Shown: positions 8,765 through 59,576, numbered from the stretch's first letter. The stretch is 59,576 nucleotides of DNA from a virus (IMGVR_UViG_3300027852_000007); one strand, 5' to 3'. Notes: generated by a model not told the origin, from the sequence alone. Translations and numbers: made by a program.

Positions 8765-8808
8765 AATACAAGTATTAGTCAATAGAAGTATTGACCTATA
8801 CAAGTATT
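8765..8808. promoter_or_regulatory. Cluster of three AATAC-WW-GTATT-type sites (one perfect, two 11/12)
   Basis: AATACAAGTATT at 8765-8776, AATAGAAGTATT at 8781-8792 and TATACAAGTATT at 8797-8808. The same 12-mer occurs at 37810, 40701 and 57181. Confidence 0.6.
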
Positions 8809-8824
8809 TATCAAGGAGAAAGTG

Positions 8825-33234: not shown

Positions 33235-33510
33235 GTAGATAAGGAGCGACTGCTCAACATGGAGCGTACCATTGGTCACGGCTGCACGCTGACTGTTTCA
33301 CCAGCGGAAATACCGGGGCTGAATTTGACGGTATTGGTCAAAGATGCTGACACTGGGGAGCGGCACCATTGGAGCCGCACAATCGACGCTACACTGTGGT
33401 TTGAGTATAGGGTACCTTCGGCTATTTTCGATCAATTTGTTGCAGAGGCAAAAGCCCGGTTTGATGCGGTTTTTGGACAGGCAAGGACGCCAAAGAGGAG
33501 GTTAGTGTGA
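33232..33510 (+). CDS. hypothetical protein
   Basis: 92 aa. Start is TTG 33232 or ATG 33259. The stop overlaps the next gene. Confidence 0.5.
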   Translation: MVDKERLLNMERTIGHGCTLTVSPAEIPGLNLTVLVKDADTGERHHWSRTIDATLWFEYRVPSAIFDQFVAEAKARFDAVFGQARTPKRRLV

Positions 33511-36500: not shown

Positions 36501-36704
36501 ATGGCGAAGGATGGTGCAGAGATAAAGACGATTGATAAGGCCATCATGCGTTATAACAAAGCCCACCCGCAGTATGCGATCACCCGCGCCACCTTGAAAC
36601 AATCCTTAAAGCGGCGCGCTAAGCTGGCGCAGGAGAGCCGGGGTGGGGTTAATCTGAACAAGCGGCTGGCTTACCTTTACGATGAGTTGCAGTTTTTGGA
36701 TTGA
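33507..36704 (+). CDS. very large virion-associated hypothetical protein (last gene of the + strand block)
   Basis: 1065 aa with a helical, charged N-terminal half and several hydrophobic segments in the C-terminal half (LGFFMYLGLTPAAAIVNMSQTAILGLPIMAA, GVLGMTGIFAGAAGMPLYSMISAMAGILLG). Function not recognised. Confidence 0.6.
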   Translation: MSTLATCIKRAGKALNPADAEEVRTLRANYIEDGMDGQAASQAAIDDVLSMLSDEREVLAKQVVKQGGRMPDQYRVYPALPTQGDKAKAEVSRLLFSKPTPEQDEVLKSMPLSGLAKAIRADDVVEEVRHKSKRMIHTVTTDAMYRKHFDKVAAMVPTRFLKDFARDEMVAPMDRLSNLFVEVDAMANSIRETFAERMEKVVAFVGKHDEARATQDLIHDSTLAGVDPSVGYKPVTFVGKTTKHVNVTVPISVARARKALKEAIAFNVRKQRRTGRQGGNVEAMAEGAELRDELAALEAKVKQEKARSEAKDELSQRWQSLSPEAQEIYTTVRDMYKDVRAIEDKAFEQRMDDLAAGKNPAEVKAIDSVRMAYRNQQLDEPYFRLYRTGDFWVAAYANEERKQVLGYWRFSSLADYDAKLDELEAAGVVTSSGKRQDDATPQVIDPTFAAEVVDKIRKMGGGAAKQLADQVWQQHLERLPDLSLRKTQMHRRKRAGFEQDITMGLAHTVYHGASQIAKLSFSGAMDRGLNELQVAAKEGSKTRKGAEVAPVLHEEMVKRVDMFRTHTTSTLANKATQLGFFMYLGLTPAAAIVNMSQTAILGLPIMAAKFGWAKSMRALLRASAQAFRPAGIKDQLTGDEKLAFEAFHARGLMEKTGAHSMAGVATEGAEYTGAQSRIMQVVSYPFHRAEVWNREATAMAAYRLARTKVDHDSAMKMASDLTWDAHFDYGTANRPRIMQRDFPKVVFLFKQYSLNMSYRLMRDANDAMRGLSQQDRKEARTRLAGVLGMTGIFAGAAGMPLYSMISAMAGILLGDEDEPFDMDTELRVALSRLLGATGSQVVMDGPTNVLTGLDVGSRVSLNNLWLRDPTYALEGKDLWHHYASEAMGPVFKLGDSTFEGLSRISQGTTERGVEMLMPKAGRDAMKALRFLNEGVLNLQGEDILPREDVSMWNALSQGIGFTPAKLALQYKQNTAIKGAEVQINQRRQLLLNRRALATMAKDGAEIKTIDKAIMRYNKAHPQYAITRATLKQSLKRRAKLAQESRGGVNLNKRLAYLYDELQFLD

Positions 36705-36736
36705 GGGGCAATTTTATTAGCTTTCATCATAGGCCT

Positions 36737-37414
36737 TCAGCCCTCAGCGAGCGGCAAAAGCTCCTGCTGCAAATGCGCATCACCGCTCCTTCTTTCGATT
36801 TCTACGTGCGACTCACGGGGAGCCTTTCTTTCATCCTCGCGCTCAATGACAGCCGAAAATGCAATACGATTGCCATTGTACATAACGTCCGGATTTATGT
36901 AGTACGCCCCTTTGCGTATGGTTTTCGCAATTATTTTTGCCTTTTCCAATTCTGACAAGCCTCGAAAAAATGTTGATATATGCATTACTGGCTGCGGATC
37001 TAAATGACCGTGACCTTCCAGAAAGTTTGACAGGGTGAAGCTGTCAAGAATAACAATGTCTTTAGCTTGAGCGTGTTCCTTTATTGCCCACATTACAACG
37101 CGCAACGCTTTGTTTCCGGCCTTTGTCAAATCAAAAGTGAACGCCATGTAGTCGGCAAATGTTTTGACAAACCTCTCCCTGTCAACCTTCTTGTAAGCGA
37201 CTACATGGGTTGATGTTATTTCCCCGGTTGTCTTGTTGATTAGTACGTTGTTCTCCTTGCCATATGTCGATATTTGTACTTGTTTTGACCCAACTGGGAT
37301 CACCATGTTTTGAATAAAAGGATTCTTGTCATATCGTATTATTTTAGTCACATTTATCCTTACACGTATTGTTATAAGATGGTGAATCTTAACGGTATGC
37401 ATTGCTAAATACAA
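36737..37414 (-). CDS. RepL-like winged-helix protein, copy A (replication initiator or regulator candidate)
   Basis: FVKTFADYMAFTFDLTKAGNKALRVVMWAIKEH...ISTFFRGLSELEKAKIIAKTIRKGAYYINPDVMYNGNRI fits the RepL pattern (wHTH followed by y.iNP...kG). AT-rich gene. True start uncertain (ATG 37402 or 37306). Confidence 0.5.
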   Translation of the reverse strand: MYLAMHTVKIHHLITIRVRINVTKIIRYDKNPFIQNMVIPVGSKQVQISTYGKENNVLINKTTGEITSTHVVAYKKVDRERFVKTFADYMAFTFDLTKAGNKALRVVMWAIKEHAQAKDIVILDSFTLSNFLEGHGHLDPQPVMHISTFFRGLSELEKAKIIAKTIRKGAYYINPDVMYNGNRIAFSAVIEREDERKAPRESHVEIERRSGDAHLQQELLPLAEG

Positions 37415-37513
37415 CTGCGTGAGGCGGCAACTCTCGGTAAAACAATAGGTGTAGATCGGTTTTTGTTATTTCTAATCTTATTCTATTGAGACCTAACATA
37501 TTATCAACATAAT

Positions 37514-37543
37514 ATTTGTAATGGCTGTGTAGCCATTACAAAT
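37514..37543. promoter_or_regulatory. Perfect palindrome upstream of RepL-like A (13-bp arms, 4-nt spacer) plus an adjacent third half-site
   Basis: atttgtaatggct-gtgt-agccattacaaat, followed by another aaatggct at 37540-37547. Confidence 0.7.
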
Positions 37544-37644
37544 GGCTAGATCGTGAAACAGAGGCTAGCATTTCCGGGGCCTGTAGAGGTTTCCCTTCTT
37601 ATATCTTGTAGTTTGCAGTTTCCATGCCAGAATTTGACCTCTTT

Positions 37645-37783
37645 TGCCCTCGACTACCGCCCTCCGCTTCGCTCGGTTGCTAGGCACTTGGAAAAAGTAA
37701 AATTGTGGACAGCGCTCCGCGTGGTCGCTGCGCTCCCGACTGACCACCGAATTTTCCTTTTCCCAAGCACCGATGCTCAAACA
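37645..37783 (-). ncRNA. Conserved 139-nt GC-rich element, copy A (candidate structured RNA or origin element; sense orientation matches RepL-like A)
   Basis: The reverse complement aligns without gaps to 58301-58439 (120/139 identical, with a 55-nt core carrying 1 mismatch). It is embedded in unrelated AT-rich sequence. Confidence 0.5.
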
Positions 37784-37809
37784 ATAGTTATTACATACTA
37801 ATATTGGCA

Positions 37810-37821
37810 AATACTTGTATT
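37810..37821. promoter_or_regulatory. AATACTTGTATT palindromic site, preceded by TTGGCA
   Basis: Perfect 12-mer of the AATAC-WW-GTATT family, 70 nt upstream of the AP2-like gene. Confidence 0.55.
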
Positions 37822-37891
37822 GGTTTAAACCAGTATTTGCTACATAAGCCGTGGGCATGTAGGCTATTCCCTTTTGGGGAGTTGACCGAAC

Positions 37892-38338
37892 TTGGCGACT
37901 GAAAATATTAGCAAGGGTATTACCAAATTTACCGATACCTGTTATCGCGCCGTTATATTTCTTCTCGGTAAGGAAGTGACGCGCTACTTCAAGACGCTGG
38001 AAGAGGCGAACGAGTGGTATGCCGAACATGCGCCGATTCGAGAAGATTTGCTCTCACCGGGTGGGAATGTCACGATGAAACAGACCCGCGCCAGAACTCA
38101 GGATTTACCTATCGGCACGTATGAGAGCTTTGAACAGTGTCGCCGCAAGTCCGTAGATTCCTACGTGGTGCCGATTATTCGCACGACGATATGCCTGAAA
38201 GACGGAGGGCTAAAGCATTTCCAACGCTCGTTTGACACGGGTGGGCCGAGGGATAGAACCCGTGAGGAAGCCGTTAAGCAGATAGCGGAAGCACGAGCAA
38301 AGTTTGTAGAAGAGAACCCGCACTTGGTGCGATACTAA
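37892..38338 (+). CDS. AP2-like DNA-binding protein (paralog of 50655-51092)
   Basis: CYRAVIFLLGKEVTRYFKTLEEANEWY is AP2-like (strand-strand-strand-helix). The C-terminal ...RTREEAVKQIAEARAKFVEENPHLV parallels ...RTLEEALAIVMEKRAAFVRANPDLF in the paralog. TTG start, uncertain. Confidence 0.5.
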   Translation: MATENISKGITKFTDTCYRAVIFLLGKEVTRYFKTLEEANEWYAEHAPIREDLLSPGGNVTMKQTRARTQDLPIGTYESFEQCRRKSVDSYVVPIIRTTICLKDGGLKHFQRSFDTGGPRDRTREEAVKQIAEARAKFVEENPHLVRY

Positions 38339-38357
38339 AAAAAAATAGGAAAAAACA

Positions 38358-38786
38358 ATGGCACGAGCACCAACAAAAGCACCAACAAAAGCACCAACAA
38401 AATCAGCCAAAGCAAAGGCGGAAGCGTTTGCGAAGAACTCGCCTGCAAAAAATCGCAGACCAACACCAGTCAAGGCCGCAACAAACAGGCGGTCTAATAT
38501 AGCGGTGCCGAGTAAAAATGGGTCGATACCACCTTTGAGCGTGTTGCTTGAGAAGGCGAACAACGAAGAAATGCTGCGCCGACCGTTGGCGCATTACAAG
38601 CCGGTGCTCAGGGTATTAATATCGAAAGGCATGATAGCACTTGAGATTATAGACTGGCTGGAGGCGCACAACGTTGGCACGTACCCGCGCACGACAATAG
38701 CCAAGATGGTCAAGACCATTAAGGATGAGAATAAGGCGAACGGTTGTGTGGGTTTGCCTGACCAGGAGGGCGACGGTCAGGGCTGA
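38358..38786 (+). CDS. Lys/Ala/Pro-rich (histone-H1-like tail) protein with C-terminal HTH-like domain
   Basis: N-terminus MARAPTKAPTKAPTKSAKAKAEAFAKNSPAKNRRPTPVKAA. C-terminus ...IIDWLEAHNVGTYPRTTIAKMVKTIKDEN. Confidence 0.55.
   Translation: MARAPTKAPTKAPTKSAKAKAEAFAKNSPAKNRRPTPVKAATNRRSNIAVPSKNGSIPPLSVLLEKANNEEMLRRPLAHYKPVLRVLISKGMIALEIIDWLEAHNVGTYPRTTIAKMVKTIKDENKANGCVGLPDQEGDGQG
38367..38402 (+). repeat. 12-bp x3 coding tandem repeat (gcaccaacaaaa = APTK)
   Basis: Three perfect units read directly. Confidence 0.9.
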
Positions 38787-40234
38787 GTAGTCTGCAAGCC
38801 TTCAATGTAGTCCACAAAAGCGGCCTTGATGGACAGTTGTGTTGCGTCCTTATCTTTGAGTGATGCCCACACCAGTTCGTCAACGGTGCGTCGGGCGATC
38901 AGCAGGTAGTTGCTGGTGATGTGTCGCTGACCCGTGCGGTTGAGGCGGCCATTAAGTTGTTCGAACAGTTCAAGGTCGGGTGTCAGGCTGAACCAGACGA
39001 TGCCGTGGGCGTGACCTTTTTGCAGGTTGAGACCGTGGCCACCGGACTGGGGCTGGACGCCCAGCAGGGGGATTTCATCATTGTTCCAACGCTCGATTAG
39101 TCTGTCACCACGTTTGGAGTCACCCAAAAACACCATCGAGGGGAAGCGCTCTTTGAGCCGGGCTTTGTCTGACCGATAGATGTAGGCGACGATCAGCGGG
39201 CGCTGGTCACATTCGTCAACAATCTGTGCCAGGGCGTCGAGCTTGGCGTTGTGAAAGCTGTTCCAGGTGCCTTTGTCATCGGTGTAGTAGGCACCGTTGG
39301 CGAGCTGTATAAGTTTACCGTAGAGTACCGCAGCGCTGACGGCGATCAGATCCTCACCAGCGATGGTGAGGATGCTCTCATGCTCCATGGTTTTGTACTG
39401 GTCAAAGGCCGCTGAGGGCAGGTCGCAGTAGACGGGGCGGGTCAGCACCTCGGGCAAGGACTGGTAATCTTCCGGTAGCAGGGTGGTGGCCAGTGACCCT
39501 ATGGCGTTGATGATAAGCCCCTGGGAACCCGGCCTTGGCATGTAGCCGAAGCCGCTGTACTGGCGCTCGAAGTAGCGGTTTCGGTAGGCGGTGATGTTAT
39601 GCCCCAGTCGTTTGCCACCATCCAGTAGATAGATTTGTGACCACAGGTTGATCAGCCCTTTCGGTGCTGGTGAGGCGGAGAGCTGTACCATGCGGTGAAT
39701 CCACGGGCGCATACGGCGCAGGGCTTTGAAGCGCTGTGAGGCGGGGTTACGAAACAGGCCGGACTCATCCATGATGACCATATCGAAGGGCCATGCGCAG
39801 TTCAGTACGCCGCTTTTAGGCGACTTTTTCACCGGGTATAAGCTGGTCAGCCATTTAACGTTTTCAACATTGATGGCGTGGTAGTGGTTGCCGTTGTTGA
39901 GTGCGCTGAGGCGCTGTTTAAGGCTGCCGCGGACTGGGGTGATGTTGATGTGCTCCAGGTGTGACCACTCGCAGGGTTCGTTGGGCCAGGTGTCTTCGAC
40001 GTTGCGCACGGTGGAGATGATGAGTACGCGGTTGATACTCAGGTCGTGGTAGAGCGCGTCGGCGATCATCAGGGCGATGAGGGTTTTGCCCGCACCAAGG
40101 AAGAGCCAGAAGGCGTGGAAGGGGTCGTCTATGCCGATGGCCACCATGCGTTGCTGGTAGTCGCGCACGTCGGCGAGACCTCTGGCTGCGGTGACGGTGG
40201 GCAGGTTTTCGGTTTGAGCGAGGGCTTGTTGCAT
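38777..40234 (-). CDS. SNF2/DEAD-like superfamily-2 helicase
   Basis: Motif I LFLGAGKT, motif II MVIMDESG, C-terminal helicase motifs GGHGLNLQ and QLNGRLNRTGQ. 485 aa. Confidence 0.85.
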   Translation of the reverse strand: MQQALAQTENLPTVTAARGLADVRDYQQRMVAIGIDDPFHAFWLFLGAGKTLIALMIADALYHDLSINRVLIISTVRNVEDTWPNEPCEWSHLEHINITPVRGSLKQRLSALNNGNHYHAINVENVKWLTSLYPVKKSPKSGVLNCAWPFDMVIMDESGLFRNPASQRFKALRRMRPWIHRMVQLSASPAPKGLINLWSQIYLLDGGKRLGHNITAYRNRYFERQYSGFGYMPRPGSQGLIINAIGSLATTLLPEDYQSLPEVLTRPVYCDLPSAAFDQYKTMEHESILTIAGEDLIAVSAAVLYGKLIQLANGAYYTDDKGTWNSFHNAKLDALAQIVDECDQRPLIVAYIYRSDKARLKERFPSMVFLGDSKRGDRLIERWNNDEIPLLGVQPQSGGHGLNLQKGHAHGIVWFSLTPDLELFEQLNGRLNRTGQRHITSNYLLIARRTVDELVWASLKDKDATQLSIKAAFVDYIEGLQTTQP

Positions 40235-40665: not shown

Positions 40666-40700
40666 AGTGCTTCTCCGTTGTTATATTACTTTTATTGATC

Positions 40701-40712
40701 AATACTTGTATT
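40701..40712. promoter_or_regulatory. AATACTTGTATT palindromic site, preceded by TTGATC, in the divergent region upstream of the parA-like gene
   Basis: Perfect 12-mer of the same family as 8765, 37810 and 57181. Confidence 0.55.
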
Positions 40713-40821
40713 TAAAGCATGTGTTGTGTGTAAAATATATGTTGTATTTGTGATGGGTAGTATTGGTTCACATACTTTTTGCTGCTATTGTTCTCCCACG
40801 CTTCAAAAGGGGGAGCCGATT

Positions 40822-41463
40822 TTGATCATTTCATTACTGGGGCAAAAGGGCGGTACAGGTAAGTCAGCCCTTGCCCGAACACTGGCGGTTGAGTTTATCC
40901 GCAACGGCTGGAAGGCGCATATCGCTGATATGGATCAGGGGCAACAGACAGCCTTGCGCTGGGGCGAGCGACGACGCGCTAATGGTATCAGCCCAGCGGT
41001 AACGGTGACAGCTTACCAGCGTGTTAGCAAGGCTTTGAGCGGTGCAGGGGCGAGCGATGTGATGATCATGGACGGTAAGGGTTTCGTCGATGCCCACGCG
41101 CTGCGTATCGCCCTCGCCAGTACGTTGGTGGTTATCCCGGTGGGTATGTCTGTTGACGATCTGGAGGCTAATTTAACACTGGCGACAGGGCTGGTAGCAC
41201 GGGGTGTGTCGCGCCAGGCCATGGTGTTTGTGGTATGCCGGGTGGCGGAGCGCGGTGAGAAGGAGGCGATGCACACACGGGCGAGCATTAAGGACTGGGG
41301 TTTTAACCCGGTGCAGGGCTGGCTACCCTTCAAGACAGCTTACTCAAAGGCGCTGGATAAGGGTCTGGCGCTAACGGAAACACGCTTTCAAACACTGAAC
41401 ACCAGGGCTGACCATGTGGTTGAGCAATTGGTGGATCAGGCGATTAAGAACGATCAAAAATAG
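40822..41463 (+). CDS. parA: ParA/ParF-type partition ATPase (small type Ib)
   Basis: Deviant Walker A LLGQKGGTGKSALA, then ADMDQGQQTAL, MIMDGKG and VVIPVGMSVDD, which follows the ParF layout. AAGGGGGAG lies 7 nt upstream of TTG 40822. The track's earlier ATG at 40726 adds an implausible Cys-rich leader. Confidence 0.8.
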   Translation: MIISLLGQKGGTGKSALARTLAVEFIRNGWKAHIADMDQGQQTALRWGERRRANGISPAVTVTAYQRVSKALSGAGASDVMIMDGKGFVDAHALRIALASTLVVIPVGMSVDDLEANLTLATGLVARGVSRQAMVFVVCRVAERGEKEAMHTRASIKDWGFNPVQGWLPFKTAYSKALDKGLALTETRFQTLNTRADHVVEQLVDQAIKNDQK

Positions 41464-41741: not shown

Positions 41742-42020
41742 ATGGCAAGATTTCGGGCACCACCGCGACAAAGCACTGATGGTATGTACGAGTGGGAGGA
41801 GAAAGAGGAAAGGGAGGAGAGGAAGGAGAGGAAGGAGAGGAAGGAGAGGAAGGAGAGGAAGGAGAGCATCGAAGAGCTGCTGGGCGAGCCGGAGGAAATG
41901 AAGCTGGTTCAGATCCGAATACCGGCGTCGGAGCGAGATCGTTTCAAGATGATTGCCGCCAGTGAGAACCTGACTATGGGTCGCTTGCTGTTGAGGATGA
42001 TTCAGGAGTACGAGGACTAA
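41742..42020 (+). CDS. ribbon-helix-helix protein (ParG-like centromere-binding candidate) with an ERK-repeat linker
   Basis: GAAGGAG lies upstream of ATG 41742. C-terminal KLVQIRIPASERDRFKMIAASENLTMGRLLLRMIQEY follows the RHH pattern. Sits downstream of the ParF-like ATPase. Confidence 0.55.
   Translation: MARFRAPPRQSTDGMYEWEEKEEREERKERKERKERKERKESIEELLGEPEEMKLVQIRIPASERDRFKMIAASENLTMGRLLLRMIQEYED
41814..41867 (+). repeat. 9-bp x6 coding tandem repeat (aaggagagg) within a roughly 75-nt all-purine tract
   Basis: Read directly. Encodes (ERK)n in the RHH protein. Confidence 0.9.
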
Positions 42021-42986: not shown

Positions 42987-43268
42987 TCAGCCCTCTAGTA
43001 TTTTGTCAATAAACAGTTCACCACCCTCGATGCTGTCCTCGTAGGTAACGAAAAAGCCCATTCTCTGTAGCTTGTTGATCCAGTAGTATTGTAGGGGACG
43101 GGGGGTTTCACCGGGACGCTTGACTTCGATGAAGCCTGCACGTCCACCGGGAAAGAGTACGAGCCTGTCGGGGATGCCCGCAGGGTTGGTGAGTTTGAGG
43201 TAGAGGCCGTCCAGCTGCTTTACGCGGTGGCGCAGTGCCTGGTCGATGTATCGCTCACGCTTGCGCAT
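42987..43268 (-). CDS. VRR-NUC domain nuclease
   Basis: GIPDRLVLFPGGRAGFIEVKRPGETPRPLQYYWINKLQRMGFFV carries the PD...E-x-K core and the conserved Q of VRR-NUC. Confidence 0.85.
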   Translation of the reverse strand: MRKRERYIDQALRHRVKQLDGLYLKLTNPAGIPDRLVLFPGGRAGFIEVKRPGETPRPLQYYWINKLQRMGFFVTYEDSIEGGELFIDKILEG

Positions 43269-45205
43269 TCGAAAATCTCCGTGATTTCACGCACTCGCTG
43301 GGCGTAGTAGCGTGTGTTGAGGGTGGCTCTGTCGATAACGGTGCTGTCGTTGGACACGGTGACGGCCTGGTGTTTGTTGATGCCGATTTCCCGCTCTTTG
43401 TCGGGCGCTTTGGCCAGCGGTGGCATGATTTTAATGAGGCTGACACCATCGGTGCTGACGTAGTACCGCGTAAGGTTCTGTAGGGACTGTTCGTCGTCTT
43501 CGGTGAGTACGTCGCGACAAACCAGACGGCTATCCCGTGGCACTTTGGCGCGCAGGAAGAAGTCGTAATCATCGGGGTGGTGTTCGATGAAGCTGTCAAT
43601 GTCTTCCCCCCTTACCAGACAGGCTTCTGCTGCTCTGGCAACAACCCGCGCTGAGAAGTTTTTGTGCCAGTCGTCGTTGGTTTCATAGTCGTATTCGTAG
43701 ACGCCTTTGTGAGTGATGGAGCCATCGGTCTTGACCGCCAGGTAGTTATTAACGTCGCGCATCCACACGCTGGCGTAGGTGTCGGTCTCAAGGACAAGCC
43801 GGGTGTGTTTCTCCCATTCTGCGCAGACCTTACACACTGTGTCGAGCTGTACTTTGGGCACGCTGTAGGCGATGCCATCGGTATTGACGTTGATCAAGCG
43901 CAGGCCGGGTACTGACATTAGCGCTTCGGCCAGCATACAGAGTAATAACTGCCCGTTGATGGTGATGGAGAGGGTGTACTGGGGATCGTAAAACGGGCTG
44001 TAAACACTGTTCGAATCACCATAGACGCCGTTTAAGGCGAGCTTGAGCATGGCGTTTTCTGCGCTACCTTTGGCGAAGGTTGAGCGCATTTTGTAAACAT
44101 CGGCATAAACCTCACAGAAGCGCTTACCCAGGTGTTCGGGGTGCAGGTTGTTGACGATGGCGAGGTTGGGGTAGTAGGACTTAACGTCGCGTTGTTCGAT
44201 AACGGTTTCATCGTCGGCATGGAAGGCGGTATTGGGTGTGGCCCCATGGAGGCCTCCCACACCGAAGTCGAATTGAAAGCCGTCGATGATGACGTTGAGG
44301 TTTTTAATCTTGCCTTTGACTTTATCGAGGTTAGCGAACGCGGCAACGTCACCCAGGGCGTCTTCTGGTATGCCTGTGAAGGTACCTTTTGTGTTGCTGA
44401 CCACTTGGCGGCGCAACCACTGTTCGATGGCCCTAAACGCAGGGTGACGGAGTTTAACGCTGTCGAGTATGAGGCTGTCGAGTACGATGTGCCCCCGGTG
44501 GGAGGTGGTAATTTTACCGGGGATACCGAGCCGGCGGGACATGTAGTCTTTACCAATTTTGGTGTCGTTGTGGTTGGTGAAGTCGATGCCTTCGGTGCTG
44601 CTCAGTGCGCGCCTGAACGCCACCTTATCACTGCTGATGTGGAAGAAGCGGCGGGTCTGTTCGACATCGTGAGCGTTGTAGCGGATCAGGGTGTCGATCT
44701 CTGAGGGCGTGAGGCGCTTACCCGGCGGGAAGGGCAGGTCTTTAATGGACGTGGCGCGCATGTTGAACTCCAGCTCTTTGAGGCTGGTACTGCGCGCCAC
44801 GTTGTCGAAGTGGTGGATGGCGTAGAGGTCGAGCTGTGTGACAAACTGTTGGTTAGGGTAGATGCGGTGCTTAAAGCGCTCGTTCCACGGGGTGCTGATG
44901 ATAGCCTGACACTTGAGCCAGGCGCGCCCCACGATGGTTTTAGCGGGTGCATCGGAGGGACAGGCCTGTATCAGGGTGTGCAGGATGGGGTAGTCAAAGC
45001 CCAGGTTGTTGAAGCCCACCATGGTAAAACGGTGGCTTGTTTTATCCAGCAGCAGCTTACGCAGGCGGGGCCAGTCGTTGCGACGTTGACTGACCTCTAC
45101 CACTGCGCGCTTGTTGTTCTGTTCGTTAATCAGCACGCAGGTGAAGACGTTGGGGTAGGTCTCAATGTCGTAGGTCAGGTAATGGGGCGTAAGCGGGCTG
45201 GACAT
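43220..45205 (-). CDS. family-B DNA polymerase with 3'-5' exonuclease domain
   Basis: Exo I YDIETYPN, Exo II GFNNLGFDYPIL, Exo III YNAHDV. Polymerase motif A DVKSYYPNL, motif B KLALNGVYG, motif C NVNTDGI. Confidence 0.8.
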   Translation of the reverse strand: MSSPLTPHYLTYDIETYPNVFTCVLINEQNNKRAVVEVSQRRNDWPRLRKLLLDKTSHRFTMVGFNNLGFDYPILHTLIQACPSDAPAKTIVGRAWLKCQAIISTPWNERFKHRIYPNQQFVTQLDLYAIHHFDNVARSTSLKELEFNMRATSIKDLPFPPGKRLTPSEIDTLIRYNAHDVEQTRRFFHISSDKVAFRRALSSTEGIDFTNHNDTKIGKDYMSRRLGIPGKITTSHRGHIVLDSLILDSVKLRHPAFRAIEQWLRRQVVSNTKGTFTGIPEDALGDVAAFANLDKVKGKIKNLNVIIDGFQFDFGVGGLHGATPNTAFHADDETVIEQRDVKSYYPNLAIVNNLHPEHLGKRFCEVYADVYKMRSTFAKGSAENAMLKLALNGVYGDSNSVYSPFYDPQYTLSITINGQLLLCMLAEALMSVPGLRLINVNTDGIAYSVPKVQLDTVCKVCAEWEKHTRLVLETDTYASVWMRDVNNYLAVKTDGSITHKGVYEYDYETNDDWHKNFSARVVARAAEACLVRGEDIDSFIEHHPDDYDFFLRAKVPRDSRLVCRDVLTEDDEQSLQNLTRYYVSTDGVSLIKIMPPLAKAPDKEREIGINKHQAVTVSNDSTVIDRATLNTRYYAQRVREITEIFECASVSDTSTRHCATA

Positions 45206-47263: not shown

Positions 47264-47815
47264 TTAGATGTCGAGTTCTCGCGTCTTGTAGTTAATCCAT
47301 TCGATGATGGTGGGGTAGTCCCTTGCCTTCAGGTCTTCGGTGGTTTCAGCGCGGTACTCGGTGGTGATCAGGTTTTTCAGCTCCATGCGCATGTCGGGGT
47401 TATCGCGAACGAAGGTGCGCACGGCGTCTTTAAAGGTTTGTTTGCTGATACGCGGGGTGGCGGGCTTTGGCCCCTGTTTACCTTTGGCGGGAGGTCGGGT
47501 TTTGGGTCGTACTGGCTCTGGTTCAGGCTCTGGTTCAGGCTCTGGTTCAGGCTCTGGTTCAGGCTCTGGTTCAGGCTCAGGCTCAGGCTCAGGTTTTGGC
47601 TTGGGTTTTGGCTTGGGTTTTGGCTTGGGTTTTGGCTTGGGTTCTGGTGCCGGTACGATGTCTTCGGCAAGGGTTCTGACCTTTCTGAGTTCGATGTCCC
47701 ACCCCTTAGCAATCAGGCTAAGATCAAGAAAGGTGTCGTTGGGAATGTTGGCGGCGTTGAGTTCGTCGATAAAATTGAGGGCGAGCTGGTATATATCAGT
47801 CATTTTTTCATCCAT
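47264..47815 (-). CDS. hypothetical protein with a central (PK)n(PE)n low-complexity linker
   Basis: 183 aa containing [48 protein letters not shown]. The flanking parts look globular. Confidence 0.6.
47514..47645. repeat. Composite coding microsatellite: ggctctggttca x5, ggctca x3, ggttttggcttg x4
   Basis: Read directly. Open in several frames on both strands, which produces multiple shadow ORFs in the track. Confidence 0.9.
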
Positions 47816-48036
47816 GAATTAATGTTGTTTATTTTTTTACTTTTTATAGTGTTAGCAAACACTTACCGCCAATTCCTTTGACGGGCGGAAAATTATGCCT
47901 TGTGATCGGATCAACAACAAGTGCATTTCGAAAAAAATCCCCTTGTTGTACCAAAAAAAATAAAGCATGGTTTGCTTCCGCCTATGGATGGGCGGCTATT
48001 CTTTACCCTCTCAAGCCCGCAAAAGGATTTGCACCG

Positions 48037-50658
48037 ATGAGTAACCCTTCTACGCCCCCGTCTGCCCCACAAACACAGGATTTCCTTACCCGCGAGGGTG
48101 TCCAGATGCTTAGAGGGGGCTATGACATTGTGCCGATCCGCCCAGGACGGAAGCACCCAGGGATGGATGACTGGCCACAACTGGAGGCGACGGAAGAGGA
48201 TCTTAAACGGTGGAGCCGTAGCGGGTTTGTCGGCGGTGGGGTGGGTGTGAAGGGGGCGTGTTGCCCTGCTGTCGATGTGGATGTGACGGATAAGACGGTG
48301 GTACTGGAGGTGCTGACGCAGGTGGAGGCGACGGTGCTGGGTGACGATGATGCGCCGATGCTGACGCGGGTGGGGCAGGCTCCGAAGTGTCTGGTGCCGT
48401 TCCGCACGGATGCGTCGTTTACGAAGTGTAGTTCGAAGGCGTGGCAGGATATGGCCGGTGATACGCAGCGGCTGGAGATACTGGGCGATGGCCAGCAGTG
48501 GGTGGCGTTCGGTATCCACCCGGTGACACGTAAGCCTTACCGCTGGCGCGGTGGTGCGCGGTGCACGGTGGCGAGTGTGCCTTATGCTCAGTTGCCGGTG
48601 CTGACGGTGAACAAGGCCCAGGCGCTGGTGCGTTGGTTCGACAGGCAGGCGGAGGAGGTGTGGGGCTGGACGAAGCCGGCGGATTGTGAAACCCCCAACA
48701 CGCTACCTGGAGCGACAGGTGAAGGGGGCACACAAAACAGTAAAGCTGGTACGCCACCCGTGGAGTGGGAGGCGGTGTCAGATCTCGACATGGGTGTGAC
48801 GCTGAATCTGATAAAACCCAGTCTATCACACAGTGAGTGGTTAAAGGTAGGCATGGGCTGTTATGCGGCGTGTAAGGGCGACGAGTGGGGCTTTAAGCTG
48901 TGGAACGCATGGAGTGCGCGCTGCCCGGAGAAGTATAACAAGGGGGAGATGCGCAAGCGCTGGCGGTCGTTCGCATCGAACCGTGAGAACCCGGTGTCAT
49001 GGGGCACGGTGCTGCATGTCGCAGGGGTCAGTGCGACGGCGACGGTGAGTGCTGAGCCGGAGGCCGGGGATAACGTGCTGACGATCAGTGATGCGGATCG
49101 ACGCAGGAACCAGCAGAAGCTGAACGCGAGGGATATGGTGAGGCGTGTCGGTGAGTGCGGTGCGGTGGGTGAGCTGATCGACGCGGGGGGATTGTGTGAT
49201 GAGTTGGGTGCGCTGATCCGCGCCAAGGGGCTCAACGCGATGTCGGTACCTATCGTTAGCGATGCGATACGTGAGCAGTACCACAAGCTGTCGGGTTCTC
49301 GCTTGCCAGTGGCGGTGTTGCGCGATGCGATTACCCCTAAGCCAGGGCGGGGTGAGGATGAGCAGTATGAGGATGATGTTAAGCCGTGGCTGGATGCGCC
49401 TGACTGGTGCAAGCCGTGGATAATGTTGCACGACAGCATGGTGAATGTGAAGAGTCGGGAGCGTATGTCGCCAGGGGCGTTTAATGTCGCTCAGGGCTTC
49501 CGGGTGCCTGATCCGTCGGGTACGGGCAATAAGCAATCGGCGATGAAGTATGTTGCCAATGGGGGTTACATTCAGGTGGTGTCTGGTGAGGCGTATTTAC
49601 CCTGGTGTGAGGACAGGCTGACGGTACTCGATGGCATGTCTGTGCTGAACACGTACTGGCATGAGGGTGTGCCGGCGGCTAAACCGTGGGATGAGACGGA
49701 CACGGATGCGGCGGATGATATTGCGTTTGTGAAGCAACATTTCGTGCAGATGCTGGGCGAGGATGAAGCTAAGATTATGCTGTCGTGGATGGCGTGGCAG
49801 GTGCAGCGACCCGGTGAGCTGCTGAAGTGGGCACCGATCCTGTGCGGGGAGCAGGGCGTGGGTAAGTCGTATATCGAGGTGCTGATGACGGCGGTGATGG
49901 GCATCGGCAATGTGGGTGTGGTTACTTCCCGCGATGTGACGAGCACGTACACGGGGTGGTCAACCGGACGGGCCGTGAATGTAATACAGGAACTGCGAGT
50001 GTTGGGACATAACCGTTATGAGGCGATGGAGGCCTTGAAGTCGGTGATTACTGACCCGGCGGTGGTGGTGCGGCGGATGCGGGAGAATTCGTTTGTGACG
50101 CGCAATACCTGCAACTATATCGGCATGACTAACCACTTCGATACGCTGCCGATACCACGGGACGACCGGCGGTGGTGGGCGCTGCGGGCACAACGACCGT
50201 CGGCTGCGATGGGTGAGGCTGCCCCGGCGTATTATGATCGACTCTTTTCTATCATCGACAAGCGCACGGGTGAGCTGCGCCACTGGTTAGCTGAGCACGA
50301 TATACCAGCGGCGTTTGTGCAGCAGAAGACGGCGCCTTACTCTGAGCTGAAGGGGCAGATGATAGCGACGGAGGTGGCCAGCCATTACGGGATGGATGAG
50401 GCTATGGTGCTGCTGGCAGAGGGCGGCGAGGGTTACTGCACGGCGGCGTTCGATGCGCTGCGTTTGCGCATGGCTTTGAATGAAGCATTGGGTGAGGTTA
50501 ATGCGCTTACAGCCAGGGAGTGCACGACGCTGTTCAAGAAGCTGGGCTATATGCGTCATGCTAAGTCGGTGCGGGTGGACGGCATGGTGTGCAAGGTGTG
50601 GACGAAGGGTGTTATGTCGAACGCGGAGGTTAGGGCTTGTTTGCAGAGTGAGGATTAG
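48037..50658 (+). CDS. bifunctional primase-polymerase / PriCT-2 / SF3 (VirE/D5-type) helicase
   Basis: N-terminal prim-pol pattern GYDIVPIRPGRKHPGMDDWPQ...AVDVDV. PriCT-2-like SHSEWLKVGMGCYAACKGDEWGFKLWNAWSARCPEKYNKGEMRKRWRSF. Walker A CGEQGVGKS. I use ATG 48037 (AAAGGA upstream) rather than the track start at 47878. Confidence 0.85.
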   Translation: MSNPSTPPSAPQTQDFLTREGVQMLRGGYDIVPIRPGRKHPGMDDWPQLEATEEDLKRWSRSGFVGGGVGVKGACCPAVDVDVTDKTVVLEVLTQVEATVLGDDDAPMLTRVGQAPKCLVPFRTDASFTKCSSKAWQDMAGDTQRLEILGDGQQWVAFGIHPVTRKPYRWRGGARCTVASVPYAQLPVLTVNKAQALVRWFDRQAEEVWGWTKPADCETPNTLPGATGEGGTQNSKAGTPPVEWEAVSDLDMGVTLNLIKPSLSHSEWLKVGMGCYAACKGDEWGFKLWNAWSARCPEKYNKGEMRKRWRSFASNRENPVSWGTVLHVAGVSATATVSAEPEAGDNVLTISDADRRRNQQKLNARDMVRRVGECGAVGELIDAGGLCDELGALIRAKGLNAMSVPIVSDAIREQYHKLSGSRLPVAVLRDAITPKPGRGEDEQYEDDVKPWLDAPDWCKPWIMLHDSMVNVKSRERMSPGAFNVAQGFRVPDPSGTGNKQSAMKYVANGGYIQVVSGEAYLPWCEDRLTVLDGMSVLNTYWHEGVPAAKPWDETDTDAADDIAFVKQHFVQMLGEDEAKIMLSWMAWQVQRPGELLKWAPILCGEQGVGKSYIEVLMTAVMGIGNVGVVTSRDVTSTYTGWSTGRAVNVIQELRVLGHNRYEAMEALKSVITDPAVVVRRMRENSFVTRNTCNYIGMTNHFDTLPIPRDDRRWWALRAQRPSAAMGEAAPAYYDRLFSIIDKRTGELRHWLAEHDIPAAFVQQKTAPYSELKGQMIATEVASHYGMDEAMVLLAEGGEGYCTAAFDALRLRMALNEALGEVNALTARECTTLFKKLGYMRHAKSVRVDGMVCKVWTKGVMSNAEVRACLQSED

Positions 50659-55383: not shown

Positions 55384-55855
55384 TTGTAACTGAAAATGGC
55401 AATTTGTAACTAAACTCCACCAAGTTCAGTTACACTTAAGTTGTTGATTTATAAGGATAAAATAAATTATGTAACTGTTGTAACTGTCTTGTAACTGACT
55501 TTGGTTACACGCCAAGTCATTGATTTATAAGGATAAATTTGTAAATTTGGTTAGGTTTTTTACTGTAACTGACTTTATTCCACGGTGTACAGATTTATAT
55601 AATATATATAATAAGCACGTAATATATTATGTGTATAGCTGGCTGGTGGAAGAAAGTCAGTTACAACAGTTACAGCGCTATTTTTTGCTGATTTTCTTAA
55701 TAAAATCAATGACTTACGGTGTAACTAAACTTGGTTACACGTCAGTTACAACAGTTACAAAAAATAAAATATGTATATAAATCAGAGGGTTAAGTGTAAC
55801 TGAACTCAGTTACACTCAGTTACACTCAGTTACACTCAGTTACACTCAGTTACAC
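55384..55855. other. Iteron-dense, AT-rich origin-of-replication-like region
   Basis: About 20 copies of a GTTAC(A)/(T)GTAAC core in both orientations, including tcagttacac x5 in tandem (55806-55855), cagttacaacagttaca x2 and tgtaactg x3. There is also a roughly 50-bp AT-only stretch (55591-55640) and an 18-bp direct repeat ttgatttataaggataaa (55444-55461 and 55520-55537). Confidence 0.6.
55806..55855. repeat. 10-bp x5 perfect tandem iterons (tcagttacac)
   Basis: Read directly. Confidence 0.95.
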
Positions 55856-56750: not shown

Positions 56751-56858
56751 CAAGAGCAAGAGCATTTAATGCCTGACGGCTTGCGCCGTCTCTGTTCATA
56801 CAAGCAAGAGCAAGAGCATTTAATGCCTGACGGCTTGCGCCGTCTCTGTTCATACAAG
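56751..56858. repeat. 54-bp x2 perfect tandem repeat, each unit with a gacggc-ttgc-gccgtc hairpin and a gcatt-t-aatgc inverted repeat
   Basis: caagagcaagagcatttaatgcctgacggcttgcgccgtctctgttcatacaag occurs at 56751-56804 and 56805-56858. Confidence 0.9.
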
Positions 56859-56973: not shown

Positions 56974-56993
56974 GGGTCTCTATATATACACCA

Positions 56994-57134
56994 CTTAATC
57001 GGTCACACTCCTTTGAACTGAGAAGTTATCCCCTTCAATACTTAATCAGTCACACTCCTTTGAACTGAGAAGTTATCCCCTTCAACACTTAATCAGTCAC
57101 GCTCCTTTGAACTGAGAAGTTATTCCCTTTCTGC
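56994..57134. repeat. 47-bp x3 tandem direct repeats about 140 nt upstream of the TerS-like gene
   Basis: cttaatc(g/a)gtcac(a/g)ctcctttgaactgagaagttat(c/t)ccc... starts at 56994, 57041 and 57088. Each unit has TCAGT-N13-ACTGA. Confidence 0.9.
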
Positions 57135-57180
57135 GCCATAACCATCAGTTATACCAAGAAACCGTATAGCGGTATTGATA

Positions 57181-57192
57181 AATACAAGTATT
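57181..57192. promoter_or_regulatory. AATACAAGTATT palindromic site, preceded by TTGATA, upstream of the TerS-like gene
   Basis: Perfect 12-mer. TTGATA, an 18-nt spacer and TACGAT would place the site inside a promoter spacer. Confidence 0.55.
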
Positions 57193-57274
57193 GACCAATA
57201 CGATGATTGGTGGCAGCCTTCGACGTAATCTGAAAAAAATTTGAAAAAAATTTCTGTCTGAGGAAACCCCTTCT

Positions 57275-58222
57275 ATGCCGCGCTCCAACCATCACGGGCC
57301 AAAAGCCTCTGACCCTATCGCCGATCTCTTTCTTGATGCCAACGCTCTGGTGGATGAGAACCATGAGGAAATTATCCGACAAAGGATGCCGGAGAAGGGC
57401 AACACGCTGAAGCCGATGGTGGTGGATACCAGCAATATGTCGCAGATCGAGTGGGTACCGGAGGAGGAGCTTGAGGCTATGGCGGCGGATTATGTCGAGC
57501 GAATCAATCAGTGCCATGCCCGTAAGCAGTATGACGAGGCCGTGGAACTAGTAATCAAGATGATGGGTGAAGGCATACATTTCGCAAAGATTAAGGCGCG
57601 CATCCCCGAAGTGGAGTTGATTATCAGACTGCGAAGAACCAGGGATGAGAACTTCGGTAGACGTATGAGCATGGTGCGCACCCGCTGTTCGGCCATCGTC
57701 TATCGTCGCAAGAACTTAGCCCAGTCGAGGACTGTCAAGAATGTCACAGGTCAGCATATCCATTATGGGATGGTCTTATATGATCAGACCATCGCCGATA
57801 TTATTTGCTACTCGGTGGTTGAGGGGGAGCTGGTGTCGAAGGTGATTGAGGGTCTGGGCATGAGTCGTAAGGCACTCGATAACTGGGTGACTCATGTCCC
57901 CGCTTTTGCCGACCAACTGGCCACCGCGAGGAAGACCGCAGCCGACGCTCATGTCGATCACGCTTTTGAGATTATTGACAACGCAGATGTGGATTCAAAA
58001 GCGGGTGTTTTGAAGGCCAAAATTCAGAGCGAATTACGCATGAAATATGCGGCCCTCGTTCACCGTGCAAGATACGGTGATAATCGCCACCTCACAGTCA
58101 GTGGAAAAGTCGATCACGTCGCTGTCCTCAATAATGCGAGGAAGAACGTGGAATCGAAGCGTGAGGCACTTATTAGCAAGATTGACGGCGAGGTGGTACC
58201 TATGCCGCCCCTTGGTGACTAA
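57275..58222 (+). CDS. terminase small subunit-like protein (HTH) with an N-terminal extension
   Basis: IADIICYSVVEGELVSKVIEGLGMSRKALDNWVTHVPAFADQLATARKTAADAHVDHAFEIIDN...SELRMKYAALVHRARYGD follows the common TerS layout: HTH, helical core, then the ...kYGD motif. Confidence 0.45.
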   Translation: MPRSNHHGPKASDPIADLFLDANALVDENHEEIIRQRMPEKGNTLKPMVVDTSNMSQIEWVPEEELEAMAADYVERINQCHARKQYDEAVELVIKMMGEGIHFAKIKARIPEVELIIRLRRTRDENFGRRMSMVRTRCSAIVYRRKNLAQSRTVKNVTGQHIHYGMVLYDQTIADIICYSVVEGELVSKVIEGLGMSRKALDNWVTHVPAFADQLATARKTAADAHVDHAFEIIDNADVDSKAGVLKAKIQSELRMKYAALVHRARYGDNRHLTVSGKVDHVAVLNNARKNVESKREALISKIDGEVVPMPPLGD

Positions 58223-58300
58223 CGTCCAGTCAGCAAGTCGCTCAGGCTGTTTAAACCCTATCTACAAGCACGCTTATTGCTCATATTAGTTAATTATTAC

Positions 58301-58439
58301 TGTTTGAGTAATGGTGCTCGGCAAAATACAAATTCGGTGGTCAGTCGGGAGCGCAGCGACCACGCGAAGCGCTGTCCACAATTTGTCTTTTGTCGAGTGC
58401 CTGACAACCGAGCGTAGCGGAGGGCGTCAGTCGAGGGCA
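58301..58439 (+). ncRNA. Conserved 139-nt GC-rich element, copy B (candidate structured RNA or origin element; sense orientation matches RepL-like B)
   Basis: Aligns without gaps to the reverse complement of 37645-37783 (120/139). A 10-bp stem, ggtgctcggc (58313-58322) with gtcgagtgcc (58392-58401), is kept in copy A through compensatory changes. Confidence 0.5.
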
Positions 58440-58541
58440 CTAGCCCCTGGAAAACACACAAAAAAGTAACACAAATAGAATCATAGAATAGGAACTTCAT
58501 AAAATCGCCGGTAGGTGTTTGATTCCTATTACTTTGTATGT

Positions 58542-58603
58542 TTTTTGTACATGCCATAGCTGGTGACACTATGGCATGACACCAGCTATGGCATGTACAA
58601 AAA
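58542..58603. promoter_or_regulatory. Perfect 24-bp-arm palindrome (14-nt spacer) upstream of RepL-like B, with extra CTATGGCAT-type sites nearby
   Basis: tttttgtacatgccatagctggtg-acactatggcatga-caccagctatggcatgtacaaaaa. Further atggcatag and gtgccat sites lie at 58651-58680. Confidence 0.75.
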
Positions 58604-58739
58604 GTAACCAGTTGTGAAATTTCAGTAAAATTTGCAACAGCATAATCCTCATGGCATAGTTCGTGCCATCCTGCTATGGTCATTCATCGCAATGTCGAGC
58701 AAAACGTTGTTAATTTGGGGTAAAATAGGGTTTTAGCGA

Positions 58740-59351
58740 ATGGAAAATAAAAATAAAAATAAAACGCATGAACTTGAACAGCAGGTCAATCATCTTAGGG
58801 AATTGCTGAATGATGAGAGAGAACAAAACAGAGCAACCAAAAACAAAGTAAACGGCGGATATTACATGACCAGTCGAAAGGCGGAAAAAAGCTTGAGGAT
58901 CTTACAGCAGGAAAGCCCTGTTGGAAGTCTTGTTTTCAGTGTGCTTCGAGAACATATGAAGATCGGTACCAACGCGGTGACAATATCAAGTCCTACACTG
59001 GCAAAAATATTGAACAAATCACTACGCACCATTGCTCGGGCCATCAAACACTTGCTCGACAATTGTTATGTTCAAATCATCAAAACCGGCAACACAAACA
59101 CTTACGTGATCAACGAACAAATTTCTTTTGCGGGTACAGCAGGACAGAGGAAGGCAGTTTTTTCTGCAACCATTGTTGCCCATGAAGATGAGCAGGAGGA
59201 GGGGTGGGAAAAGGTAAAAACACTAAAGACCACAACTTCACCGATTGACCGCAGAGCATCAGATAATCGTGCACAAGCGAGGAACATGAATCGAAAGCAC
59301 TCTGCTGATGACACAAAGCATGACACCCTGTGGCACGCTACCACGCCATGA
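58740..59351 (+). CDS. RepL-like winged-helix protein, copy B (replication initiator or regulator candidate)
   Basis: ...VGSLVFSVLREHMKIGTNAVTISSPTLAKILNKSLRTIARAIKHLLDNCYVQIIKTGNTNTYVINEQISFAG fits the RepL pattern. AT-rich gene. Confidence 0.5.
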   Translation: MENKNKNKTHELEQQVNHLRELLNDEREQNRATKNKVNGGYYMTSRKAEKSLRILQQESPVGSLVFSVLREHMKIGTNAVTISSPTLAKILNKSLRTIARAIKHLLDNCYVQIIKTGNTNTYVINEQISFAGTAGQRKAVFSATIVAHEDEQEEGWEKVKTLKTTTSPIDRRASDNRAQARNMNRKHSADDTKHDTLWHATTP

Positions 59352-59391
59352 GGACTAAATATCACCACCAAAGGCAGGAATGATACTTTCC

Positions 59392-59576
59392 ATGACCATC
59401 ACCTTTGACGAGCAGGGAACCCCTGTTGTCGTCACTGAGCGGGGCGTTGACAGGCCTTACGACTTCAGTTTCAAAACCATTAACGCTTTCGTCAACAGGC
59501 CTGGGGTACAGTTCGAGGAGCTGGAGGCCTTGTGTCTGGCCATGGCGGATTCGATGGAAAAGTTGGGCAGAAACGA
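59392..59576 (+). CDS. 5' part of the junction-spanning hypothetical ORF (continues at 128-191 after circular closure)
   Basis: ATG 59392, MTITFDEQGTPVVVTERGVDRPYDFSFKTINAFVNRPGVQFEELEALCLAMADSMEKLGRN... The frame is open to the window end and continuous with 3-191. Confidence 0.45.
   Translation, partial: MTITFDEQGTPVVVTERGVDRPYDFSFKTINAFVNRPGVQFEELEALCLAMADSMEKLGRN
59450..59576. repeat. Terminal direct repeat, copy 2 (identical to 1-127)
   Basis: Same 127-nt string as the window start. Unique genome length is therefore 59,449 bp. Confidence 0.95.

Follow-up and report, generated by a model that had tools for sequence, protein, structure and literature searches.

A GC-rich, non-coding module of ca. 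140 nt forms the constant 5′ head of mini-replicon cassettes of ca. 0.9 to 1.1 kb in a phage-like genome of 59,576 nt (the whole stretch of DNA analyzed, hereafter the window) and in several metagenome contigs. The cassettes share one order, i.e., the element, a leader of 100 to 300 nt with initiator-specific iterons or a palindrome, and a gene of the RepL superfamily, and the orientation of the element with respect to rep was constant in all six versions found. Behind it, we located three mutually unrelated initiator types (A, B, and C) at three or more genomic sites, and related phage or phage-plasmid genomes differ through the exchange and insertion of these cassettes. The original prediction of a strand-specific structured element whose position and orientation are linked to RepL-type genes is supported by the six versions, but its description as a private feature of two genes is not, since the element is the common head of interchangeable cassettes with at least three initiator types.

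The two copies in the window and their RepL genes

The window is a circular assembly (bases 1-127 recur at 59450-59576) and represents a phage-like genome with plasmid traits. Besides the RepL genes, its genes code for ParA (40726-41463), a DarB/LPD39 giant protein (33507-36704), the phage's own DNA polymerase (43220-45205), a Prim-Pol/PriCT_2/helicase protein of 926 aa (47878-50658), an Sf6-type small terminase (terS, 57275-58222), an SNF2 helicase, an Enc34-type SSB, and a PD-(D/E)XK nuclease, together with a portal protein, as called in a second assembly of this phage (ENA ERZ27237542, 59,414 nt). Neither close relatives of the genome nor relatives of RepL-A, RepL-B, and terS were found among GenBank phages or in the viral contig collection, and the search for terS homologs retrieved a single relative.

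The two copies of the element have 141 nt each. Copy B is located at 58301..58441 (+) and copy A at 37643..37783 (−), with scores of 163.6 and 164 bits, respectively, against the covariance model R1. From 5′ to 3′, copy B consists of a tail (TGTTTGAG), the hairpins P1 and P3, and the terminal GTCGAGGGCA. As originally described, 58301-58439 matches 37645-37783, taken in reverse complement, at 120/139 positions without gaps (19 differences), and both contain a 55-nt core with one mismatch. The similarity is far above chance (blastn E 1e-45). The statement that the flanks are unrelated was slightly too strong, because on the 5′ side ca. 17 nt of AT-rich, operator-like sequence are also similar, and a repeat finder stretches the pair to 156 nt at 84% identity (37645-37800 / 58284-58439). 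This AT-rich extension common to both copies (ATATTAGT..TAAT, 58284..58300, + strand) resembles one unit of the 16-nt-periodic operator-like repeats found directly 5′ of copy A (37794..37838, with no strand assigned). The same repeat family appears at 8765, 40687, and 57165, which makes four divergent promoter regions in all.

Cassette B (58301..59392, +) lies between terS and the downstream late genes. Its leader (58442..58739, +) contains a RepB-specific palindrome with 27-nt arms (58542-58603) and CTATGGCATG repeats, and it is followed by the RepL-B initiator gene (58740..59351, +; 203 aa). Cassette A (36705..37783, −) is located between the LPD39/DarB-like gene and the operator region, with a leader (37352..37642, −) that carries a RepA-specific palindrome with 13-nt arms (37514-37543). 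The RepL-A initiator gene (36737..37351, −) probably starts at the GTG at 37351, after AAGGA, which is also the start in the gene call of the second assembly; the longest ORF extends to 37414. The element is thus 300 nt from its gene in copy B and 230 nt (from the ORF start at 37414) or 293 nt (from the GTG at 37351) in copy A, within the 230 to 300 nt given in the original prediction.

RepL-A matches the Pfam RepL family with an E value of 2.4e-9, whereas RepL-B gives only 1.3e-3, which is below the cutoff. To call the two genes paralogs, as had been done, is misleading, for their products share 22% identity (BLASTP E 0.04) and are not recent paralogs. Homologs of RepL-A come mostly from metagenome contigs of 1 to 7 kb. 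Those of RepL-B are RepL or “plasmid replication initiator-like” proteins of gammaproteobacterial plasmids of 1.2 to 5 kb, with hosts that include Vibrio, Aeromonas, Rahnella, and Klebsiella, and the likely hosts of the window phage are Gammaproteobacteria. A sequence search of the PDB with both RepL proteins gave no match. The AF2 model of RepL-A (pLDDT 70) displays a winged-helix fold only, with no nuclease fold, and in the fold search all its matches were weak and of the winged-helix type.

Exchange of cassettes among related genomes

Five further metagenome contigs carry the element, two of them retrieved via the closest RepL-B homologs and three via one gapped-pattern scan of metagenome contigs. 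They represent four new versions, for a total of six. In contig L013, the site is that of cassette A, with an LPD39 gene 97% identical to that of the window up to the stop codon, but the element is followed by a RepB-type gene (71% identical) and not by RepA. Contigs L017 and L018 correspond to the site of cassette B (terS region 94% and downstream gene ca. 99% identical) and carry four 22-bp iterons, a RepL gene of type C (Pfam RepL, E 3e-5), and a small ORF. Thus, in L017, with flanks 94 to 99% identical, the segment equivalent to 58457-59392 has been replaced by a different iteron and RepL cassette. Contig L015 is related to the window at 42016-42019. There, flanked by two small genes, it has an insertion of ca. 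890 nt made up of the element, 22-bp iterons, and RepC in reverse orientation. The 5′ end of the element abuts the junction, there is no target duplication, and the site at 42016-42019 is empty in the window. L014 and L016 have a different backbone (SSB, DUF1376, and RecT-like genes) with a RepB-type cassette and, after it, a RepA leader and gene without a second element. The RepA leader and gene of L016 are 96% identical to those of the window and begin exactly at the end of copy A (37641).

In all these cassettes the junctions are abrupt, directly after GTCGAGGGCA, and what lies behind is specific for each initiator, i.e., the palindrome with 13-nt arms for RepA, palindromes with 27-nt arms or 25-nt repeats for RepB, and 22-bp iterons for RepC. 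Four short contigs from other samples (L010, L011, L012, and L019) break inside the element, as expected for a repeat with variable sequence behind it.

These boundaries could indicate that the element is a recombination joint, either a conserved linker or a folded-DNA substrate used in the capture, exchange, or movement of cassettes between sites and backbones, with a logic similar to that of integron attC hairpins, RSB-type sso hot spots, or the boundary sequences of mosaic phages. The element does end abruptly on both sides, related backbones (94 to 97% identical flanks) carry different rep types behind it, the start of the RepA module of L016 coincides with the 3′ end of copy A, with the module attached elsewhere, and in L015 a whole cassette with the element at its junction fills a site left empty in the window. 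In addition, plasmids and phage-plasmids are documented to swap replication genes frequently (PMC10879196). However, there are no target-site duplications, terminal inverted repeats, or partial second copies at the other end of the cassettes, no integrase or other recombinase was detected in the subset of ORFs scanned, and the R″/R′ boxes of attC sites (RYYYAAC/GTTRRRY) are absent from the base of the hairpin (GGTGCT.../...AGTGCC). Furthermore, the compensatory 30-bp stem and the excess of G.T over A.C pairs described below imply selection on a folded single strand, which homology-driven exchange would not need. We consider this role improbable as the main one. It is nevertheless compatible with a function in priming or as a leader RNA and may be a by-product of either.

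The two copies of the window are inverted and separated by about 20.5 to 20.6 kb. The inversion of the whole intervening arm by exchange between them, suggested in the original prediction, would be allowed by this geometry, but nothing indicates that it occurs, as the second assembly is collinear with the window across both copies. A minor inversion isomer would be detectable by long reads only.

Outside this group of contigs, the element was absent upstream of the RepL-A homologs (L001-L006) and of a RepL-B homolog 72% identical (L022, L023), as well as from tiny RepL plasmids (L024-L026). It is therefore not a general part of RepL replicons, since free plasmids with homologous rep genes carry none. 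As a separate observation, the tiny RepL plasmids have a GC-rich, strongly folding non-coding region 5′ of an AT-rich region and rep, a loose analogy only. Comparison of the element by blastn with GenBank phages, PLSDB plasmids (72,556 records), and E. coli genomes gave no match, and exact and gapped pattern scans of viral contigs did not find it. Among 185,579 species-representative genomes, the 21-mer of the core had only two chance matches, both inside GC-rich coding sequence, which rules out a host repeat of the REP or MITE type. A GC-rich hairpin within AT-rich intergenic DNA, present twice per genome, does recall a MITE- or REP-like host repeat that landed beside two genes, but no copies were found in the E. 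coli genomes, plasmids, and phages searched, the element is always tied to a rep gene in a single orientation, it has no terminal inverted repeats, and the comparison of the filled site of L015 with the empty one of the window reveals no target-site duplication. This origin is thus very improbable and effectively refuted.

A protein-coding or small-peptide gene, or the remnant of one, has next to no probability and is also effectively refuted. Although ORFs of 52 to 154 aa span the copies (58311-58469, +; 37565-38029, −), no frame is open in both, third codon positions show no excess of differences (8/4/8), and three of the six versions contain single-base indels (alignment columns 39 and 63). 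With stops in every frame of one copy or the other and indels in the relatives, the sequence behaves as a non-coding element. Nor does it belong to a known RNA family, in agreement with the original prediction. Rfam gave no match at gathering score across the whole window, a tRNA/tmRNA scan found none, and at E values up to 10 (58150-58800) nothing overlapped the element and the matches fell on the downstream palindrome.

Folding and strand specificity

To compare the versions, we used an alignment of the six distinct sequences (two window copies plus four new ones), with pairwise identities of 79 to 98% and belonging to about four lineages. Half of them (3/6) had been retrieved by a pattern that fixed the blocks AATTCGGTGG and GCTGTCCACAATT, so the invariance of these blocks is partly a matter of ascertainment; both are also present in L013 and L014, which were retrieved via proteins. 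The main structure, supported by folds and pair counts, is P1, an imperfect hairpin of ca. 30 bp (58313..58401, +, in copy B; 37683..37771, −, in copy A). In copy B it has a GC base, a middle part formed by an A-tract and a T-tract, and a conserved GC-rich apical region with CAGCGA at the apex. It is followed by the small hairpin P3 (58402..58429, +; TGAC..CC / GG..GTCA), with the loop GAGCGTAGCGGA and two pairs changed on both sides.

Considering P1 (30 pairs) and P3 (6 pairs) together, 96.3% of the cells in the alignment pair, compared to 41 to 51% when the partners were slid by 1 to 3 columns. Changes on both sides were found at seven pairs (0 to 1 in the slid controls), and none of 500 shuffles reached the covariation score observed. 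Joint folding and a covariation check, which had been suggested from the two copies, therefore recovered real compensatory changes with the six versions. The 10-bp stem with C-G/T-A and G-U/G-C exchanges that had been noticed turned out to be the base of this much longer hairpin, and the second one (ctgac/gtcag versus ctagc/ggtag) has one compensatory pair and one broken pair, as described.

Within the helices there were 21 G.T cells and only 1 A.C cell. As G.T cells far exceed A.C cells, selection to fold acts on the rep-sense strand only, and this bias excludes a palindrome or cruciform site in double-stranded DNA. The original prediction had taken the G-U pairs as favoring RNA over a double-stranded DNA site. 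The second half of the comparison holds, but the pairs do not favor RNA over single-stranded DNA, in which G.T is equally allowed, and the structural data suit both equally well. Conservation is uneven along the hairpin. The mean identity was 90% in the apical 46 nt, the part conserved in sequence, and 81 to 82% in the basal arms, which show compensatory variation. Such a difference would be expected if a protein reads the apex while the base need only pair.

Some parts of the fold are less firmly defined. RNAalifold preferentially joins the GTTTG of the 5′ tail to a portion of the P3 region, a pairing that has one compensatory pair, and the data from the six versions fit both this alternative and P3. 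The innermost apical helices are unsupported because L014 breaks them. RNA folding gave energies of −54 to −62 kcal/mol (z −2.0 to −3.2). When DNA parameters were applied, the sense strand reached −25 to −29 kcal/mol, modestly below shuffles (z −1.1 to −3.5), and surpassed the antisense strand by only about 2.6 kcal/mol on average.

These RNA folding energies, the tolerance of G-U pairs, and the location in the same sense as rep in 6/6 versions would suit a structured 5′ leader RNA acting in cis, such as an RNase III-type processing or insulating hairpin that would provide all cassettes with one common mRNA 5′ end, a binding site for a phage or host regulator, or the target of an antisense RNA. 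Its transcription would start in the adjacent AT-rich, operator-like region on the 5′ side or result from read-through. Indeed, an AT-rich segment resembling the operator unit (ATTAGT..TAAT) precedes the element in five of six contexts, a weak promoter (TTGCCA-18-TATTGT) was called for copy A, and a constant leader would put a captured rep gene under phage control. There is a precedent in phage P1, whose repL operon is driven by a C1-repressed promoter. However, we found no consensus promoter for copy B, L015 has no upstream room for one, no terminator follows either copy, there is no antisense promoter/terminator pair, and no match to Rfam appeared even with the most permissive search. The conserved apical sequence would be unnecessary for an RNase III site, and the element cannot pair with a conserved ribosome-binding region, given that the sequence from the element to the start codon is unrelated among the cassette types. 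A leader RNA is thus less likely than not, but it is the main rival of the reading preferred below. If correct, it would represent a new leader family that places captured rep genes under common control.

The rep leader RNAs under antisense control (CopT/CopA of R1, RNA II/RNA I of ColE1, and the countertranscripts of pT181 and pMV158) are similar in that they constitute a long structured region, in rep sense, upstream of a plasmid-type rep gene. The element differs from them in its lack of a detected antisense promoter/terminator and of an Rfam match. Moreover, these leaders are replicon-specific incompatibility determinants, and the element is the opposite, as it precedes unrelated rep genes. 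The search for an antisense partner in the window gave five complementary 11-mer matches versus 4.75 expected, i.e., chance level. The roles listed in the original prediction (leader or sRNA, origin or primer, and recombination substrate) still cover the live hypotheses, with the exception of a stand-alone trans-acting sRNA, which is unlikely considering that no consensus promoter was found for copy B, no terminator for either copy, and no target was found elsewhere in the window.

A possible single-strand initiation signal

The reading that we prefer, on a tentative basis, is that the element is a strand-specific single-strand initiation signal, similar to sso or ssi sites, that serves the adjacent RepL origin. 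It would act as DNA, as the functional equivalent of the sso of rolling-circle plasmids or of the ssi sites of Gram-negative plasmids. The RepL protein would open or nick its own repeats, unwinding would expose the rep-sense strand, the hairpin would then fold, and a priming machine (host RNA polymerase, the host primosome, or the phage's own Prim-Pol/helicase are candidates) would start the synthesis of the complementary strand there. If this machine is independent of the initiator, the same hairpin could serve any adjacent RepL and iteron module, which would explain a constant hairpin with everything downstream swapped. Being strand-specific, locked in orientation, and indifferent to the initiator, the element behaves like the part of an origin that is read by the host or the replisome rather than by the initiator. 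In L015, the hairpin is only ca. 12 nt away from the junction of the insertion, and since this leaves no room upstream for a cassette-borne promoter, there the element cannot rely on its own transcription.

A close parallel is the ssoA (palA) of rolling-circle plasmids, including that of the RepL/pSN2 family. RepL plasmids of the pSN2 family, which is classified as rolling-circle replicating (RCR), are reported to carry an ssoA that they require to synthesize the lagging strand; sso function depends on orientation, and RCR plasmids are cassette mosaics with abrupt junctions (PMC5703833). Like the element, ssoA is an imperfect hairpin of 140 to 160 nt, functional on one strand only, as the element folds on one strand only, and associated with RepL-family initiators in cassette-mosaic replicons with abrupt junctions (PMC5703833). 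Both are located a few hundred nucleotides upstream of the initiator repeats and rep, on the rep-sense strand, as in pE194, where the ssoA hairpin (RSB at 644, TAGCGA apex) precedes cop and rep by about 370 nt on that strand. The apical hexamer, TAGCGA-like in both, may be a further common feature. At the apex of P1, L014 and L015 have TAGCGA and the remaining four versions CAGCGA, with a related NAGCGG in the loop of P3, and the CS-6 hexamer of ssoA is TAGCGT (PMC4598088).

Still, the element has no detectable sequence homology with ssoA and no RSB box, it is GC-rich with a stem that contains A- and T-tracts, its likely hosts are Gammaproteobacteria instead of Firmicutes, and it belongs to a phage-like genome of ca. 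59 kb and not to a small plasmid. We found no sequence similarity to known sso or ssi sites by blastn against PLSDB and GenBank phages, which may or may not include the carriers of the classic ssi sites, and model R1 had no match to pE194 or pT181. At the base of the hairpin, the RSB box (e.g., TTATGCCGAGAAAATTT) is absent, with a loose resemblance of 8/11 positions only (TGCTTGGAAAA versus TGCCGAGAAAA). A rolling-circle mode is not established, because RepL-A was modeled as a winged helix alone and the iterons of type C, 22 bp in length, look theta-like. Together with the lack of homology and of an RSB box, this makes “ssi-like” a safer designation than “sso” in the strict sense.

Among Gram-negative systems, ssi sites include ssiA and ssiB of RSF1010, which are read by the primase of the plasmid itself, the G-site of R1, the primosome assembly sites of ColE1 and F, and the “A site” of R6K, a hairpin with a DnaA box. 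The element resembles them as a strand-specific hairpin beside an iteron-type origin that would be exposed after opening driven by the initiator. The similarity with RSF1010 extends to the two copies on opposite strands and to the fact that the window genome encodes its own Prim-Pol/helicase, plus DNA polymerase and SSB. In contrast to these sites, the copies of the window are about 20.6 kb apart and in different replicons, and no similarity in sequence was found with PLSDB. Regarding the possible reader of the hairpin, an invariant CTGTCCACA in the 3′ arm of the stem coincides with 7/9 positions of the DnaA box TTATCCACA; in the window as a whole, 17 DnaA boxes (≤1 mismatch) were found versus 11.5 expected, an enrichment that is not significant. 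Inspection by eye of the hairpin arms revealed no conserved pair of σ70-like −35/−10 boxes of the kind found in single-stranded DNA promoters (Frpo or M13 type).

The reader may be the Prim-Pol/helicase of the phage, as the element occurs in this phage group only and the plasmids with homologous rep genes lack it. Extending the ssi-like reading in this direction, the hairpin would be a portable docking and priming site owned by the phage, read by the Prim-Pol/PriCT_2/helicase protein with the polymerase and SSB, which would also mark the breakpoints of cassette capture, swap, and insertion. We regard this more specific version as speculative and rather improbable. Were it true, any adjacent plasmid-derived opener consisting of iterons and RepL would become a working phage origin, a plug-in architecture with an RSF1010-like logic, and the likely benefit would be to escape incompatibility or to switch between plasmid and lytic modes.

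We know of no account that explains how an initiator module from elsewhere comes to function in another phage-plasmid backbone. Here, the unit of exchange and its boundaries are visible at base resolution, with a constant structured head and a variable part formed by the initiator and its repeats. As a priming signal, the head would define a new class of single-strand origin for the poorly characterized RepL replicons of Gram-negative bacteria and would provide a simple rule to build or recognize such origins. Whether it works as DNA or as RNA, the element is compact (ca. 140 nt) and testable, with clear mutational predictions.

In phage P1, the plasmid replicon (repA) is distinct from the lytic one (repL). 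The structured head that the cassettes have in common and the view of their unit at base level are new here, and neither such a head nor cassette swapping is described in the texts consulted on P1 and crAssphage. The presence of two divergent RepL genes (22% identity) in a phage-like genome with ParA does have a counterpart in crAssphage, a phage-plasmid with two distantly related repL genes that share 24.6% identity (PMC10983915). In the window, the two divergent RepL genes are compatible with separate replicons for the plasmid mode and the lytic mode.

Contig ends and sequence context at the cassette sites

Six short contigs (L010, L011, L012, L019, L020, and L021), which derive from at least four independent samples, start or end within the element or right beside it, and two of them (L020 and L021) stop 33 to 46 nt past the small terminase gene terS. 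Such ends would be expected if assembly breaks off at a repeat behind which polymorphic cassettes lie.

In the window, copy A of the element is flanked by two small ORFs, at 37892-38338 and 38358-38786. Both are missing from the related contig L013 (positions 1-135, compared with window positions 37824-38800), which makes a further indel adjoining the element. The third cassette site directly follows the stop codon of a small gene that comes right after ParA and whose product has a ribbon-helix-helix-like C terminus. Within this gene, a 9-nt coding repeat encodes a Glu/Lys/Arg-rich stretch (window 41790-41870; positions 40-100 of L015, the contig with a cassette inserted at this site); the window and L015 have different numbers of copies of this repeat.

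Two complete RepL plasmids, pNCRE-61-1.3 of K. pneumoniae (1,307 bp) and pW17-3-c of Moellerella (1,220 bp), are, at 1.2 to 1.3 kb, about the same size as the cassettes of the window group. In both, one half is non-coding, GC-rich, and strongly folding; an AT-rich region comes next, and rep lies after it.

Genome ends and strand asymmetry

The window assembly is circular (or terminally redundant), with a length of ca. 59,449 bp, and an exact 127-nt direct repeat is found at its termini (1-127 is identical to 59450-59576). The GC skew of the + strand was positive in all 2-kb bins along the whole window. Among these are the bins between 42 and 57 kb, in which the genes are mostly on the - strand and the AT skew changes sign. 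This hints at a strand asymmetry that gene orientation does not account for, possibly reflecting unidirectional or rolling-circle replication.

Other repeats in the window

Upstream of terS there are two perfect copies of a 54-nt tandem repeat (56751-56858) and three copies of a 47-nt tandem repeat with 85 to 96% identity (56993-57133), which could be pac-related or represent another origin or iteron array. A 122-nt inverted repeat, with arms 75% complementary and 176 nt apart (55405-55526 and 55703-55824), is also matched by the related contig L017 in both orientations.

A 16-nt-periodic repeat family, with a consensus of about AATACAAGTATTGAC, appears paired at four intergenic or divergent regions (8765-8809, 37794-37838, 40687-40712, and 57165-57209), one set being immediately 5' of copy A. 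These repeats are candidate repressor operators or, alternatively, candidate centromere sites for the pair formed by ParA and the ribbon-helix-helix protein.

Coding tandem-repeat arrays were found as well, with periods of 129 to 132, 201, 69, and 12 nt. Three (26781-27340, 30183-30536, and 30800-31006) are inside late genes, presumably tail or fibre genes, and the 12-nt array (47497-47664) is located in the early arm.
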